Source of the DNA: a virus
IMG/VR virus record: IMGVR_UViG_3300044615_000494
Reading direction: 5' to 3' (one strand)
Length of the DNA stretch: 64,000 nt
Shown: positions 32,763-38,043 of the stretch, piece after piece
How positions within the stretch are numbered: the first letter of the stretch is position 1
Layout: each line of letters begins with the position of its first letter
The notes under the pieces: generated by a model
Databases searched by the model: none
What the model saw: the letters and a program-made list of their open reading frames with translations, nothing else
What the model was told of the DNA's origin: nothing
Program-made: the position numbers and the translations under genes

Positions 32763-32984
32763 TTAAAACTTAGACTTAGGGAGATTTTGTTGGTCTATTT
32801 GTTTTTTCCAACGTCTTTTGGCTAATTCTCTAGCGAGTTTCTTTTTGACGCTAGGTTTAGTATATGTCTCTCTATCTTTAAGTTCTAATAGTAAGCCGGA
32901 CTCCTGCACCTTTTTCTTTAGTTTTCTTAGTGCTTTTTCTACGTTTCCGTCTTTGACTATTACTTTTCTACCGTATAAATTCAT
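32763..32984 (-). CDS. rpsU: 30S ribosomal protein bS21
   Basis: V.V.DGNVEKALR..KKK....G...EL..RE.Y.KPS..K. Confidence 0.9.
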   Translation of the reverse strand: MNLYGRKVIVKDGNVEKALRKLKKKVQESGLLLELKDRETYTKPSVKKKLARELAKRRWKKQIDQQNLPKSKF

Positions 32985-34198
32985 ATTAATGTCTCAGGAT
33001 TTTTCACAAGGTCCTGAATAATATTTATCTCCGCAACGTCACTTTCCTTGTATCTGCTGATGTTAAACATGTGGGGCATGAGTACTCGTTCTAGTTCGCT
33101 TTGTATGCCCCTAGCACCGGTTTTTAACTTAAGACAGTTATCAGCCATCTGTTCTATAGCACCCTTGCTAAATTTGAGTTTGATCTTGTCGATGCTGAAT
33201 AGATATGTATATTGATCAATTAGATTGTTTTTGACCTTGGTCATGACTTCGACTAACTGTTTCTTATCTAAATCCTCTACAGATATAGAAGTAGCGAATC
33301 TACCAACAAATTCAGGTATCAAACCAAATCGTGTCAAGTCGTCCGGACTTACTCTATCTAAGAAACTTTCATCAGTATTTGGCTTTACTTCAGCATTGAA
33401 GCCTATGCTGGTTCCCTTGATGCGAGACTTGACGATATCGTTCAATCCTACAAACGCACCGCCCGCTATGAACAATATGTTCCTAGTATCAATCATATCC
33501 ATCTTGCCGTCAGGGTGCTTTCTCCCGCCATTAGCAGGAATACGACAACGTGTTCCTTCTATCAGTTTCAGTAGTGCTTGCTGAACGCCCTCACCACTAA
33601 CGTCACGGGTGATACTAGTGCTTTCGCTTTTACGTGCGATCTTGTCAATCTCATCGATGAATATGATTCCACGTTCGGCTAGTTGTATATCTCCACCGGC
33701 TTCTTGTAATAACATAGCGATCATGCTTTCGACATCATCACCTACGTAGCCCGCTTCAGTTAAACTTGTAGCATCGGCTATGACAAAAGGAACACGCAAA
33801 AACTTAGCGGCTGTCTTAGCCAATAAGGTTTTACCGGAACCAGTAGGACCTAGCAACAATACATTACCTTTTTGAATCTCAAGATTATCCGGCGGATGCA
33901 TGATACGCTTATAATGATTAGCGATAGCGACAGACAAGGTAACTTTAGCGTTATGTTGCCCGACTACATGCCCATTTAAGTGATCATAAATGTTTAGGGC
34001 ATCTACATCTCTTAACGCCTCTAACATCTGATGTTGTTTCTCATCATCAGGCTTTATGTCTTTACTAACAAGATCGTGGCATAGATACGTGCAATAATCA
34101 CATATTGCTACCTCACCGGACACAATTAATTTTTTTCTTTTATCCTTATGGGTACCACAAAAAGAACAGGTTTCTAAATGTTTTTCTTCATCACTCAT
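32981..34198 (-). CDS. clpX: ATP-dependent Clp protease ATPase subunit ClpX
   Basis: C4 zinc domain (CSFC...CDYC), GPTGSGKT, GYVG pore loop, IIFIDEIDK, RDVSGEGVQQALLK, IGF loop, GARG. Confidence 0.96.
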   Translation of the reverse strand: MSDEEKHLETCSFCGTHKDKRKKLIVSGEVAICDYCTYLCHDLVSKDIKPDDEKQHQMLEALRDVDALNIYDHLNGHVVGQHNAKVTLSVAIANHYKRIMHPPDNLEIQKGNVLLLGPTGSGKTLLAKTAAKFLRVPFVIADATSLTEAGYVGDDVESMIAMLLQEAGGDIQLAERGIIFIDEIDKIARKSESTSITRDVSGEGVQQALLKLIEGTRCRIPANGGRKHPDGKMDMIDTRNILFIAGGAFVGLNDIVKSRIKGTSIGFNAEVKPNTDESFLDRVSPDDLTRFGLIPEFVGRFATSISVEDLDKKQLVEVMTKVKNNLIDQYTYLFSIDKIKLKFSKGAIEQMADNCLKLKTGARGIQSELERVLMPHMFNISRYKESDVAEINIIQDLVKNPETLI

Positions 34199-34227: not shown

Positions 34228-35175
34228 TTATAATTTGCAATCACGTGCCGCAACAACATCTACGTATATATCATATATGACATCTGCAGGTACTGTCAGT
34301 TTAATGCGCATGGTTCCTGCATTGCGGTCATTGCCGAATACAGTTAATCGATTATTTACGCCTATGCTGTAGAATATGCCGCCTGCTCGGTACTCAGGAT
34401 TATAACAGATATTCAATACTTGTCTGCCGCGATCATCTCTAGCCTTTACCTTCAGACGCAGTTCGTTTTGGTTTACAAACTTGCTTTTTAGATAATCAAG
34501 TCTATGTAAATCATCGATGAAATATTTATTGTGCTTACCTAACAATAAATCATTAGGATTTTTAGCAGAAACATTGATCACCCCACGGCCTATAGGAGTC
34601 TCTATCTCAGAGAATATCTCATTCATCGATGTGACAAAATTGTAATTCCATCTGATATCATAGGGTACCATCAGATAGAAGTTTCTATATGAATCTGTTG
34701 TAAAGTATGGATTTTTAGTTTGTTGCAAATTATAGGCACGATAAGGATAATCGCGAAATACTTCATCAATTAATCTATCGCCTTTCTGCTGTTCATGGCG
34801 AATAGTATGTACTTGTGCATTGACGATATTACTGTCAAATTGATTTTTAGAATTAGATTTGCTGAACAATCTTTCGGATGTTTTGTTATTGGTCACCGTC
34901 ACATTGATCTTTATTTGAGTACCAATATCCTCTAGTATCTCGTATTTCTCTACACGACAACTACTGTATGAGATTACTTGATCATGAACCGTCTTTCCGT
35001 TGAAATGTTCACGGTCGCTTAACACGGCAGTACCGCATATATTTTCTATGGCAGTACGGAAAGCGTCCTTCTTGGCAGATTCGCGGTCGGCACCATAACC
35101 ATATACAGTTATAGATTCAGCACCGACCGCGATTCCCGCAAATGATAGAAGGATCGCAGTAGCGATCTTCTTCAT
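34228..35175 (-). CDS. Secreted/periplasmic protein with signal peptide (LPP20-like N-terminal domain)
   Basis: MKKIATAILLSFAGIAVGA signal; G.G....A.KDA.R.A pattern. Confidence 0.65.
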   Translation of the reverse strand: MKKIATAILLSFAGIAVGAESITVYGYGADRESAKKDAFRTAIENICGTAVLSDREHFNGKTVHDQVISYSSCRVEKYEILEDIGTQIKINVTVTNNKTSERLFSKSNSKNQFDSNIVNAQVHTIRHEQQKGDRLIDEVFRDYPYRAYNLQQTKNPYFTTDSYRNFYLMVPYDIRWNYNFVTSMNEIFSEIETPIGRGVINVSAKNPNDLLLGKHNKYFIDDLHRLDYLKSKFVNQNELRLKVKARDDRGRQVLNICYNPEYRAGGIFYSIGVNNRLTVFGNDRNAGTMRIKLTVPADVIYDIYVDVVAARDCKL

Positions 35176-35176
35176 A

Positions 35177-35815
35177 TTAGCCGCCAGCAATCAAGCCACG
35201 TACTTGTCGAATGTCATTACTATCATACTTGTTCCAATTGATAGTACATGCCACAGTCTTGGGATCTACAAGATTAGTCTTACTGATCGCAAAACCTACA
35301 AGACGACCTTGAGCATTAACAGTAACAGTTCTGACGATATCAATGTCAGTGTTGATCAATGCTTCGCGGACGCTATAGTTGGTATCCTTGTTAGGATCAT
35401 CGGGACTCATAGAAACATCAGGTCCGATCTCAGTTTGGCTCTTGAATCTATCCTTCTGATTCTCGTTCTGGTTGTTCTTAGTAATAGTACGGCGATTTTC
35501 GGAAACGTTCATACCAAACACATAAGCGACTACGTTAGCACGGGCATTATCACACGCCATACTAGTCGTAGACTTCTGAAGCAATCGGGTAGCACCAACA
35601 CTAGGTTGCACACCTACAGCCTGAATGCCGATCACTTCGCACTGTTTGCTATTCCATAGCCACCCGCACTTCTTATCAATCTTGATAGTCTCGCCGGGAA
35701 CGTTTGTTGCGAAAGTTTGAGATTCGATTGTGGGAATCTCGCCCTTCTTAGGACCATTACTAGAACAACCAGCAATAGCCAATGCAACACCTGCAACAAT
35801 TAAACTAGACTTCAT
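35177..35815 (-). CDS. Lipoprotein (LPP20-like)
   Basis: Lipobox IAGC after a hydrophobic leader; GGAG RBS; own TTGACC-17-TATAAT promoter. Confidence 0.75.
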   Translation of the reverse strand: MKSSLIVAGVALAIAGCSSNGPKKGEIPTIESQTFATNVPGETIKIDKKCGWLWNSKQCEVIGIQAVGVQPSVGATRLLQKSTTSMACDNARANVVAYVFGMNVSENRRTITKNNQNENQKDRFKSQTEIGPDVSMSPDDPNKDTNYSVREALINTDIDIVRTVTVNAQGRLVGFAISKTNLVDPKTVACTINWNKYDSNDIRQVRGLIAGG

Positions 35816-35874
35816 AAACGTTTTCTCCATAGTTGTGAAACGTATAATGATTATAGAATAGTCTACTGTTTAGG

Positions 35875-36495
35875 TCAAGTGTTTTGGTTACCTTTTAGAT
35901 GTGCTTCTATCTCAGCCTTTTCGTCATCGCTGAATACATCCAAATCGTATTCGCCCGAATTCAATTTCTCAATCAAAAACTCAATGTACTCCTTGTTGTA
36001 CATATAACTTTGGCTAGTGTTCTTATTTTGCTCTAACCATTTTTTACCGTCAAACTTGAATACACGATTTGGTAACACATCTACGCGAACGAATATATCA
36101 CCTTTCGCGGCTATTTTGGGAAACTGTGTTCCAAATCCTGTACTCTTTTGAGCACCTAAATCTGCTTTGGCAGAGAATAAATCCGGACGCAATTCTTTCA
36201 GTGCGTTGCTCTGATATAAAGAACTATTGAATTCTACGTAGCCGTTACCTACATCCTTTAAAGGGGTAACACCCTCAGTTATTATTTCTTTGGGGGCAAC
36301 AACTTCTTGAACAGATTTAATATCGGGCTTCGGCTCCAGTTTGTTAGGTTCTTCCAACTTAACTTTTCTTTTACGTTTAGTTGGCTTAGGCTGGAACGTA
36401 ACTTGCTTGAGAGGTTTGACGGGCTTAGTGACTTTATTTGGTCTAATCTTGGCAACTTTAAGTTTAGGTTGCTCAACTTTAGCCTTTCGCTTAAC
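35875..36495 (-). CDS. -1 frame C-terminal extension of the 37487 gene (track shows only 35875..36357 from a TTG start)
   Basis: Frame is open from the A9G run at 36495 (VKRKAKVEQPK...) to the stop at 35875 and closed by TAG at 36513. Confidence 0.7.
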   Translation of the reverse strand, partial: VKRKAKVEQPKLKVAKIRPNKVTKPVKPLKQVTFQPKPTKRKRKVKLEEPNKLEPKPDIKSVQEVVAPKEIITEGVTPLKDVGNGYVEFNSSLYQSNALKELRPDLFSAKADLGAQKSTGFGTQFPKIAAKGDIFVRVDVLPNRVFKFDGKKWLEQNKNTSQSYMYNKEYIEFLIEKLNSGEYDLDVFSDDEKAEIEAHLKGNQNT

Positions 36496-37487
36496 TTTTT
36501 TTTTACAGGACTATCCTGCTTTACTTCTTCTTTAACTAAGCCGCCGTCGGCAGTGAGTTCTGCATCCCCTGCTTTTGGCTCAATAGGCTCGCTTGTTTGT
36601 TCTTTTTCTTCAGGGGTTAATGGTAGATATCCTGCTGTGGTGGCCGGAACAAACTCTTCCTTCTTTTCAAATTCCCATTTATAACTACTGATTGCGGCGA
36701 TCACAAGCATCAATGCTAATGGGTCAAATACAAAAATCAATAGTATGATTACCCAACGGACGGCCTTTTCTAACAACGCATTGTCTGGGTTGTCACCATA
36801 TATCAATGCCGCGATATATTTTATAGGACCTACTTCTGCTTCAATCTTACGAAACTGAGTGGCTAACGGAGCCTTTTCTAAACTCAATGCCTGTATAGTC
36901 TGATTTGATTTTTCTATACGGGACTGTGCATCATCAATCTCTTTTGTATATGCCTGTCTATCTCTACGCTGTGCGGCTCTTATCTGTACGGATCTTTCTG
37001 CACTTGCCTCACTAGTGCCGCGATCCAGTCTTGCGGACACTTGAGCATCCATCTGTGATAATGCTCTGCGGGCAGATTCTATATTTTCGCGCTCACTGCT
37101 TATCAATTCACGCTGAATAGCGATCTTCTCATCGATTAAACTTATCTGAGCAGCCACATCGCCTGTAGGTATACCCTGATCCATATGGGCTTTGCTTAAG
37201 AAGCCGAATATGCCCATGCTTGTGACAAGTGCTAATACTGCTACAGCACCTGTCAAATATGTTTTCATCAACCATCTACATCTTTCCCAATATCGGTGCA
37301 ACCATATCGTTGTAACAATCTTGGCTACCTCGAGACTACCTCCCATGATGATCACGGGTATGACGGCGGCAGCGAATATAGCGGTCAAACCGACTACGCT
37401 ATACCAGGCTGCTATGGCACTGAGCGTTAATGCTGTGATTAACGCTAATGTAGATAGGCTAAATACTTTCCTTATTAATAGTGGCAT
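36282..37487 (-). CDS. Multi-pass membrane protein with long coiled coil (401 aa in 0 frame; about 537 aa if frameshifted)
   Basis: Three N-terminal TM segments, GFLSKAH, coiled coil, VGPIKYIA and IFVFDPLA motifs; start 5 nt after TAAATA. Confidence 0.85.
   Translation of the reverse strand: MPLLIRKVFSLSTLALITALTLSAIAAWYSVVGLTAIFAAAVIPVIIMGGSLEVAKIVTTIWLHRYWERCRWLMKTYLTGAVAVLALVTSMGIFGFLSKAHMDQGIPTGDVAAQISLIDEKIAIQRELISSERENIESARRALSQMDAQVSARLDRGTSEASAERSVQIRAAQRRDRQAYTKEIDDAQSRIEKSNQTIQALSLEKAPLATQFRKIEAEVGPIKYIAALIYGDNPDNALLEKAVRWVIILLIFVFDPLALMLVIAAISSYKWEFEKKEEFVPATTAGYLPLTPEEKEQTSEPIEPKAGDAELTADGGLVKEEVKQDSPVKKKLSERLKLSNLNLKLPRLDQIKSLSPSNLSSKLRSSLSQLNVKEKLSWKNLTNWSRSPILNLFKKLLPPKK
36495..36517 (-). 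promoter_or_regulatory. Candidate -1 frameshift signal: A_AAA_AAG heptamer with AGGA 12 nt upstream
   Basis: In-frame GTA AAA AAA AAG; 9-A run at 36496-36504. Confidence 0.6.
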
Positions 37488-37526: not shown

Positions 37527-37760
37527 TTATTCTCTAGGTTCAGGAGCCTCTCCTTTACCAAACAAATGCCCGTAATTGCCTAAAAACTCTGTAAGAGACT
37601 GCACAAGATTTCGTGGAATGCCTGGACCTTGTTGTACTAGATATCCTACAATAAAGTCTTCGTCACCGCGCCATTTGATATGCTTAACTTCAAGCCAGTC
37701 ACCATCAGCGAACATATATCGCTGACCTACTAAATCTTCGTAGCCGCTGAGTTTAGTCAT
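37527..37760 (-). CDS. Hypothetical protein
   Basis: ORF; start reassigned to MTKLSG. Confidence 0.7.
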   Translation of the reverse strand: MTKLSGYEDLVGQRYMFADGDWLEVKHIKWRGDEDFIVGYLVQQGPGIPRNLVQSLTEFLGNYGHLFGKGEAPEPRE

Positions 37761-38043
37761 CTTCGCCGGGAACCTCATAGGCTACGTCATAGCCACCCTT
37801 GCGATCACTGAACCAATCATCATCACGGTCGTAATCGTAGTTTTCGATGAACTCTAAGAAATTATCATGCTCTTCATCAGTAGGTTCTTCACCTTCTGGT
37901 TCGTTCCAATCATTGCTAGTCATATGGCTAGCGATCTCTTTGAAACGTTCTACTGAACCAAAGTTCTCAATGATATCTTCTTCAGGGATATCATAATTAA
38001 AATGACTATGTACTTGGTGATACTCAATTTTTACGAATTTCAT
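37753..38043 (-). CDS. Acidic hypothetical protein
   Basis: AAGGAG RBS; D/E-rich. Confidence 0.75.
   Translation of the reverse strand: MKFVKIEYHQVHSHFNYDIPEEDIIENFGSVERFKEIASHMTSNDWNEPEGEEPTDEEHDNFLEFIENYDYDRDDDWFSDRKGGYDVAYEVPGEDD

Follow-up and report, generated by a model that had tools for sequence, protein, structure and literature searches.

Most documented cases of recoding in phages concern tail chaperones, capsid proteins and mobile elements. Here we describe a gene for a predicted membrane protein on the minus strand of the IMG/VR virus record IMGVR_UViG_3300044615_000494, at positions 35875-37487 of the 64,000-nucleotide (64-kb) stretch of DNA that was analysed, hereafter called the window. 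Comparison of the gene with its relatives makes it very probable that a run of nine adenines followed by a guanine (A9G) directs programmed recoding, by which one phage membrane protein would be made as two isoforms of ~401 and ~537 amino acids (aa).

Several described systems offer points of comparison. In Citrobacter rodentium and Yersinia, a poly-A tract interrupts the gene of the inner-membrane protein TssM (tssM; Gueguen et al. 2014, PMC4256274). Slippage of the polymerase there gives two forms, both of them needed: a short one and a full-length one with the C-terminal domain (PMC4256274). The heptamer A_AAA_AAG is the most shift-prone one known in E. coli, and slippage on A9/T9 runs is efficient in bacteria, Thermus dnaX being a gene that makes use of it (PMC5009743). 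In Roseiflexus IS630, a terminator-like stem-loop in the nascent RNA lies immediately 5' of the slippage run (Penno et al. 2015, as cited in PMC5009743). The phage genes G/GT and T7 10A/10B show conserved -1 recoding that gives products with a common N-terminus, often without strong stimulators (PMC5009743). The literature that we searched held no report of recoding in the phage gene family described here or in membrane proteins of jumbo phages, which is not proof of absence.

Organisation of the gene

The 0-frame open reading frame (ORF) occupies 37487..36282 on the minus strand, from an ATG at 37487 to a stop codon at 36284..36282, and encodes 401 aa. Its start is conserved, M1 and P2 being invariant in our alignment A4. 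Codons 328-331 of this frame, at 36506..36495, read GTA AAA AAA AAG and contain the shift site A9G (36504..36495, minus strand; on the plus strand the run is T9 at 36496-36504). Written as (GT)A AAA AAA AAG, the site includes the heptamer A_AAA_AAG in the phase that fits a tandem -1 slip from the 0 frame. The -1 frame is closed by a TAG at 36513..36511, just upstream of the run, and from the site onwards it comprises 206 codons plus a stop (36495..35875, minus strand, from GTT at 36495..36493 to TGA at 35877..35875). The predicted trans-frame product has 331 + 206 = 537 aa and the junction ...SPVKKKVKRK....

The two frames overlap for ~70 codons (36494..36282, minus strand). The 0-frame reading of this overlap is a tail rich in Leu, Lys and Ser (...KEKLSWKNLTNWSRSPILNLFKKLLPPKK), and the -1-frame reading is a linker rich in Lys, Pro and Val (...KRKVKLEEPNKLEPKP...). 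The globular C-terminal domain, of ~135 aa, follows the basic linker in the -1 frame (about 35878..36300, minus strand).

The first-pass annotation of the window had proposed a programmed -1 shift, or slippage on the A9 run, that joins a membrane and coiled-coil part to the C domain. All of its coordinates and sizes are correct (the 401-aa ORF, the slip site, the 206-codon -1 frame and the product of ~537 aa), and the homologs described below support the proposal itself. Three features go beyond that account: the selected 0-frame tail, the hairpin that abuts the A run, and the Shine-Dalgarno (SD)-like AGG within the stem.

The A9 run is the sole A/T homopolymer of at least 8 bases in the window. 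The composition-based expectation is ~7 runs of at least 8 bases and ~2 of at least 9, and A/T homopolymers of at least 8 bases are strongly under-represented across the 64 kb (1 observed versus ~7 expected). The strand composition of the window is skewed (T 32.6%, A 27.6%, C 22.1%, G 17.7%).

Conservation of the split and of the run

Relatives of the gene were collected as 173 loci from viral and metagenome contigs and sorted by tblastn with the two protein parts. After removal of duplicates, 50 loci were split and 70 had both parts in one frame (470-573 aa). The C part lies in the -1 frame in 49 of the 50 split loci, with N-part identities mostly of 56-90%. Both the split and the heptamer, whose conservation in homologs the first-pass annotation had pointed to as a check, are clearly conserved, and A9G is found in the same phase in 45 of the 49 relatives with a -1 split. 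The remaining four carry A8GG (2 loci), A10 then TTA (1) and A8 (1), and the A8GG variants retain A_AAA_AAA. The base after the run is G in 48 of the 49 loci. An A precedes the Lys codons in every split locus, be it the last base of a Val, a Leu or a Pro codon; for comparison, GTA makes up only 48% of Val codons elsewhere. The -1 frame opens 6-69 nucleotides (nt) 5' of the run in every split locus. The flanks differ among these loci, which are therefore independent sequences.

Searches of 5.8 billion proteins gave a consistent picture. The best 120 matches to the N-terminal 330 aa (72-92% identity) are 341-433 aa long, all but two of them 393-433, so they end where the 0 frame of the window ends. 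When the 206-aa product of the -1 frame was compared with longer proteins among these 5.8 billion, no fused form above 62% identity was found.

In a maximum-likelihood tree of the full-length proteins (split genes read through; quick IQ-TREE search), the split genes form one clade (SH-aLRT 100) and every outgroup is fused, as a single ORF of 470-570 aa. The split therefore arose once, and the ancestral gene was one ORF with both parts in one protein. The first-pass annotation had also named an outcome that would contradict its proposal, namely homologs in one frame without a slippery site; this is true of the outgroup only, and the split clade runs counter to it.

Three members inside the split clade, L027, L139 and L127, are in frame. 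L027 and L139 keep CCA AAA AAA AAG yet continue in the 0 frame, and a -1 shift in these genes would terminate after four further codons (KKKVSEI, then a stop). Judged from their sequences, a shift would again yield a long and a short form. L127 differs from the split gene L130 only in having A11, which places it in frame, instead of A10. Similarly, L121 and L022 are near-identical genes with A8 and A9, respectively. The members of both pairs (L127:2449/L130:2462 and L121:2493/L022:2453) come from different metagenome or viral contig records, and their one-A differences are either homopolymer assembly noise or true length polymorphism in phage populations. Such one-base run variants in the assemblies are rare exceptions to A9. 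A separate irregularity was seen in L029 (IMGVR_UViG_3300020221_000240, 1388-2321), in which a second frame break falls inside the N domain: tblastn matches the domain in two pieces whose frames differ, and the read-through meets a stop at residue 202. This may be a decaying copy or an assembly error.

Constraint on both reading frames

Within the split clade, nucleotide diversities at the three codon positions are 0.24/0.18/0.49 for the N domain; those for the C domain are 0.26/0.20/0.53, a pattern that is normal under purifying selection. In the overlap, from the A run to the 0-frame stop, they are 0.40/0.33/0.38 in -1-frame numbering, and the excess of third-position substitutions disappears. 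The same was seen in a comparison of 15 phylogenetically separate sister pairs, in which differences by codon position number 181/130/645 in the C domain and 243/170/183 in the overlap, where the most variable position is the 0-frame wobble. Of the changes in the overlap in these pairs, 33% are silent in the 0 frame and 26% in the -1 frame.

The 60 codons that precede the globular domain hold no 0-frame stop in any of the 49 split loci. For comparison, there are 3.3 stops per 60 codons in the 0 frame of the fused relatives and 12.5 in the third frame of the split loci. Synonymous codons of the -1-frame linker were resampled, asking whether the 0 frame stays open, and the probability of its being open by chance was below 0.0005 in the median and at most 0.02 per sequence. 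Val, Leu and Ile codons that would make a 0-frame stop before A or G are absent from the overlap (0/511) versus 1169/2228 elsewhere in the gene.

The 0-frame tail is 63-83 aa long in the split relatives and ends where the globular domain starts. It contains the conserved motif KEKLSWKNLT(N/D)WxKSP(I/T/V)L, which includes an invariant Trp. Read in the -1 frame, the DNA of the tail encodes the linker motif KRKVKLEEPNxLE, which occurs in split genes only; the linkers of the fused relatives are variable and acidic.

These substitution patterns indicate that the C domain is under purifying selection within the split clade, and the domain is therefore expected to be expressed. The ~70-codon 0-frame tail is under selection as well, and therefore the unshifted product is probably functional too. 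With both the 401-aa protein and the C domain selected, the synthesis of two products from one start is the simplest reading.

RNA elements beside the run

The consensus around the site in 45 distinct sequences is GCAGG-N5-CCTGT-A9-GTTA, in which CAGG is complementary to CCTG. The corresponding hairpin in the window, GCAGGA-UAG-UCCUGU (36519..36505, minus strand), has 5-6 base pairs (bp) and directly abuts the A run, the last base of its stem being the one next to the run. It folds at -6.3 to -7.0 kcal/mol with z of -3.4 to -4.7. Its 5' arm holds the SD-like AGGA (36517..36514), which lies 12 nt 5' of the heptamer as the first-pass annotation had stated, and its loop holds the TAG at 36513..36511.

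The stem is present in ~37 of the 45 sequences, and 92.6% of cells are paired versus 21-43% with the 3' arm slid. Most pairs are invariant. Three cells are double-changed, one from C-G to G-C and two from A-U to C-G, and they include GAGG...CCTC in L017. At the innermost position, 18 sequences have A-U and 9 have U-A, and in 16 the bases do not pair. The SD-like element, as AGG(A/T/C) 12 nt 5' of the heptamer, is found in ~40 of the 45 sequences, with pairing of only 3-4 nt and a position within the hairpin; L140 has no hairpin and retains the AGG.

On the 3' side, RNAalifold on the 45 sequences gave no conserved structure, which agrees with the strong 3' hairpin having been reported as absent in the first pass. 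Taken by itself, the window folds modestly over 85 nt beginning with the A run (36504..36420; -13.4 kcal/mol, z -2.1). Phage frameshift sites do not require stimulators. No frameshift element was found in Rfam, where a permissive scan gave two chance matches at E 4.7.

A model with two isoforms

What the relatives show directly is that the site, the split, both frames and the sequence of the hairpin are conserved; from this we infer the synthesis of both proteins, their ratio and the machine that slips. Standard decoding would give the ~401-aa protein, with four predicted membrane helices, a coiled-coil hairpin and a Leu/Lys-rich tail of ~70 aa. In a fraction of events, reading would move to the genomic -1 frame at A9G, and this would swap the tail for the basic linker and the globular domain of ~135 aa to give ~537 aa. 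By one route, RNA polymerase would insert an extra A while on the A9:T9 hybrid, and the nascent hairpin that ends at the run would assist it. By the other, ribosomes would slip by -1 on A_AAA_AAG.

Several observations weigh against the model. Covariation in the hairpin is thin, at three double-changed cells, and codons constrain the same bases as well. RNAalifold found no consensus pairing, that of the hairpin included (45 sequences, -50 to +70). Between 6 and 8 split loci, for example L111, L137 and L146, have neither the hairpin nor the AGG and yet are split, and therefore neither stimulator is essential. Finally, the one-A differences between L130 and L127 and between L121 and L022 amount to some DNA-level or sequencing heterogeneity at the run.

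An inserted A and a ribosomal -1 slip give the same ...SPVKKKVKRK... peptide, so mass spectrometry cannot discriminate between the two machines. A purely ribosomal -1 frameshift of the dnaX type, which is a sub-case of recoding at A9G and was what the first-pass annotation chiefly proposed, is possible but somewhat doubtful. It would use uniform A9 mRNA and a tandem tRNA-Lys slip on A_AAA_AAG, with stimulation by the SD-like AGG(A/T) 12 nt upstream. The heptamer stands in the correct phase in 45 of the 49 loci and the A8GG variants still provide A_AAA_AAA, both of which fit such a slip, as does the spacing of the AGG, which stimulates -1 shifts in dnaX (PMC5009743). The SD match is, however, of only 3-4 nt, and the AGG is absent in L111, L137 and L146 and altered in L130. 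Neither a conserved 3' stimulator nor an Rfam frameshift element was found. The G that follows the run in 48 of the 49 loci likewise accords with a ribosomal slip, but it is also fixed by both coding frames.

The run itself has nine A's, beyond the six of the heptamer, and the first of them, outside the heptamer, stays the same whether it ends a Val, a Leu or a Pro codon. Run length is conserved beyond coding need, and this favours slippage by the polymerase over that by the ribosome. The position of the stem directly 5' of the run would, by analogy, be the geometry of the Roseiflexus IS630 stimulator (PMC5009743), whereas a hairpin one base from the site would sit inside the translating ribosome and could not act there. 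Long A/T runs are avoided elsewhere in the window, which also favours the polymerase, and A9 is expected to slip in transcription anyway (PMC5009743). On balance we lean slightly towards polymerase slippage as the main route; both routes may well contribute jointly.

Explanations other than recoding fare much worse. Two separate genes, of which the first is an ancestor truncated by a fixed frameshift and the second a soluble C-domain protein of ~160 aa translated from an internal TTG at 36357, are very unlikely. A TTG or GTG does occupy that alignment column in 40 of 46 sequences, and the ORF listing of the window gives a 160-aa ORF from TTG 36357. Yet the invariant Trp of the other frame dictates the last two bases of this codon, its initial T is in line with ordinary Leu codon usage, and no SD lies 5' of it. 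Moreover, the 46 codons that separate the A run from the TTG hold no -1-frame stop in 49 of 49 loci, against 12.5 stops per 60 codons in the third frame, and the -1 frame closes just upstream of the run.

Marginally less probable still is phase variation at the DNA level, in which replication slippage would maintain A9 and A10 genomes that each make one isoform, with no recoding. The pairs that differ by one A (L130 with A10 and L127 with A11; L121 with A8 and L022 with A9) are what such variation would produce, but the consensus is A9 in 45 of 49 assemblies and L127 is the sole in-frame run-length variant found. A minority genotype would also hardly sustain the strong purifying selection on the C domain. 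A decaying pseudogene or an assembly or sequencing error in the window is scarcely credible, and the error is already refuted in practice: homopolymers are error-prone, but the same state recurs in ~45 independent assemblies whose flanks differ, selection acts on both frames, and no fused close relative was found.

Predicted proteins and their homologs

The N part has four predicted membrane helices, with a coiled-coil hairpin of ~130 aa between helices 3 and 4. After helix 4 come an acidic stretch, the KKK site and, in the 0 frame, the Leu/Lys/Ser-rich tail of ~70 aa. An AlphaFold2 model of the N part contains helices at 11-105, 108-156, 160-230 and 239-271, with a mean pLDDT of 59 and values of 70-88 in the coiled coil. 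The 0-frame tail is of low confidence in the model and predicted to be disordered apart from a short helix where the Trp motif lies. From the positive-inside rule we infer that the coiled coil is periplasmic and that the parts after helix 4 are cytoplasmic.

The match of residues 118-261 to Pfam DUF4407 (PF14362) scores 18.5 bits, below the gathering cut-off of 31.3 (E 0.0013), and some homologs carry precomputed PF14362 matches. A distant relation to DUF4407 is possible, and the window protein is not classed as a member. A weak match of the N part to Pfam Tetraspanin is likewise below the curated cut-off. For the function of the N part, a protein Atlas search gave only viral hypothetical clusters. 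Cultured phages encode N-only homologs with 26-43% identity, all annotated as hypothetical, among them Mosig_00157 of Pelagibacter phage Mosig (326 aa), gp85 of Flavobacterium phage immuto (381 aa), a protein of Xanthomonas phage XacN1, and others. The Mosig and immuto homologs are annotated as single ORFs, and tblastn against the phage collection gave no match to the C domain in these cultured-phage records.

The C domain is modelled as a small beta-rich fold followed by helices (AlphaFold2 pLDDT 73), and it is fused in frame in 70 relatives. Foldseek found no similar structure in the PDB at E <=0.001, the best hit of a VIA wide search (Z 4.2) was within noise, and Pfam gave no match. In PHROGs there was one weak match, to a 'virion structural protein' family (E 2e-4). 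Our guess is that the protein acts in an envelope-associated complex.

Genomic context

The recoded membrane gene (35875-37487) is one of five genes on the minus strand whose order is kept in split and fused relatives. It is preceded by an 83-aa ORF (37527-37778) and followed by a lipoprotein of 217 aa with the lipobox IAGC (35177-35830), a secreted protein of 320 aa with a signal peptide (34228-35190) and ClpX (32981-34198). The lipoprotein, the secreted protein and the small upstream ORFs, among them that of 83 aa, have no Pfam or PHROG match. A match to the sigma-70 promoter consensus (TTGACC, 17-nt spacer, TATAAT; 11/12 positions), which is a consensus match only, lies at 35850-35878 on the minus strand, shortly before the lipoprotein gene, in a position that overlaps the recoded gene's stop codon.

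The homolog in Mosig (L001, 1789-3421) adjoins a putative glucosaminidase, and that in immuto (L002, 1-3571) lies a few genes from a holin and a chitinase. These neighbours hint at an envelope or lysis context in those phages. A lysis cassette was considered and set aside as a weak lead only: the genes downstream in Mosig are not lipoproteins, and the window has no lysis gene adjacent. The 64-kb window contains no tRNA genes. It belongs to a 100-kb viral record that CheckV estimates to be 27% complete, and related contigs reach 333-335 kb, which points to a large uncultured phage.

Discussion

The recoding proposed here would add a multi-pass membrane protein to the repertoire of phage recoding, in a widespread group of uncultured large phages. 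The comparative record is unusually clean: the outgroup is fused, the split originated once, three members have reverted to a single frame, the signal is present in ~45 independent copies, and both frames are selected over a stretch of 70 codons. Gene callers now give a protein of ~400 aa and an orphan ORF at such loci, an annotation that can be corrected. The hairpin with A9G is also a compact natural cassette for separating polymerase slippage from ribosomal frameshifting.

Two features of the gene are uncommon: the overlap of ~70 codons with both frames selected, and the terminator-like hairpin beside A9. Tentatively, and with somewhat less than even confidence, we suggest that the 0-frame tail arose by overprinting. 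In the single-ORF ancestor, the poly-A tract would have lost one base or been newly created, and slippage on A9 would have preserved the full-length protein. Read-through of the linker exposed in the 0 frame would then have become a functional tail of ~70 aa with its invariant Trp motif, and the terminator-like hairpin and A9, acting on RNA polymerase, would set the isoform ratio. If this is true, the tail is a recent and datable birth of a protein segment within a linker, in a clade of uncultured jumbo phages, and the gene would serve as a datable example of a new peptide that arises through overprinting. To our knowledge, the combination of an overprinted tail, a terminator-like hairpin and A9 slippage has not been reported in a phage gene.

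Membership in the G/GT family of tail assembly chaperones, which are encoded by a pair of small genes flanked by those for the tail tube and the tape measure, was considered and rejected, as the protein has four predicted membrane helices and its gene is flanked by a small ORF and by the genes for a lipoprotein, a secreted protein and ClpX. G/GT and 10A/10B are virion-assembly or capsid proteins whose 0-frame product ends near the site, whereas the gene described here encodes a multi-pass membrane protein in a ClpX/lipoprotein module and has a long dual-coding overlap.

The likeness to dnaX lies in the site. E. coli dnaX has the same A_AAA_AAG with an upstream SD-like element at similar spacing, and Thermus thermophilus dnaX has a run of nine and two isoforms made by slippage (PMC5009743). 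The shifted product of dnaX is, however, short and ends within a codon or two, whereas that of the phage gene is long. In addition, E. coli dnaX has a strong 3' hairpin and no conserved one is found at the phage site, and the protein families are unrelated.

With IS630 the phage gene shares the placement of the stem, which ends on the base before A9. IS630 loses one base at a T5C5 motif with a G+C-rich stem of 6 bp; the phage gene has A9 and a weaker stem of 5-6 bp, a putative stimulator, and one base would be gained.

In the logic of its recoding, the phage gene appears by analogy to be closest to C. rodentium tssM. Both are genes for a membrane protein with a poly-A tract and a short and a long form. 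The tssM gene is a bacterial type VI secretion system (T6SS) gene with A11, a stop right after the run and no long overlapping frame. The phage gene instead combines A9G with a selected 0-frame tail of ~70 codons, a 5' hairpin and conservation across its clade.

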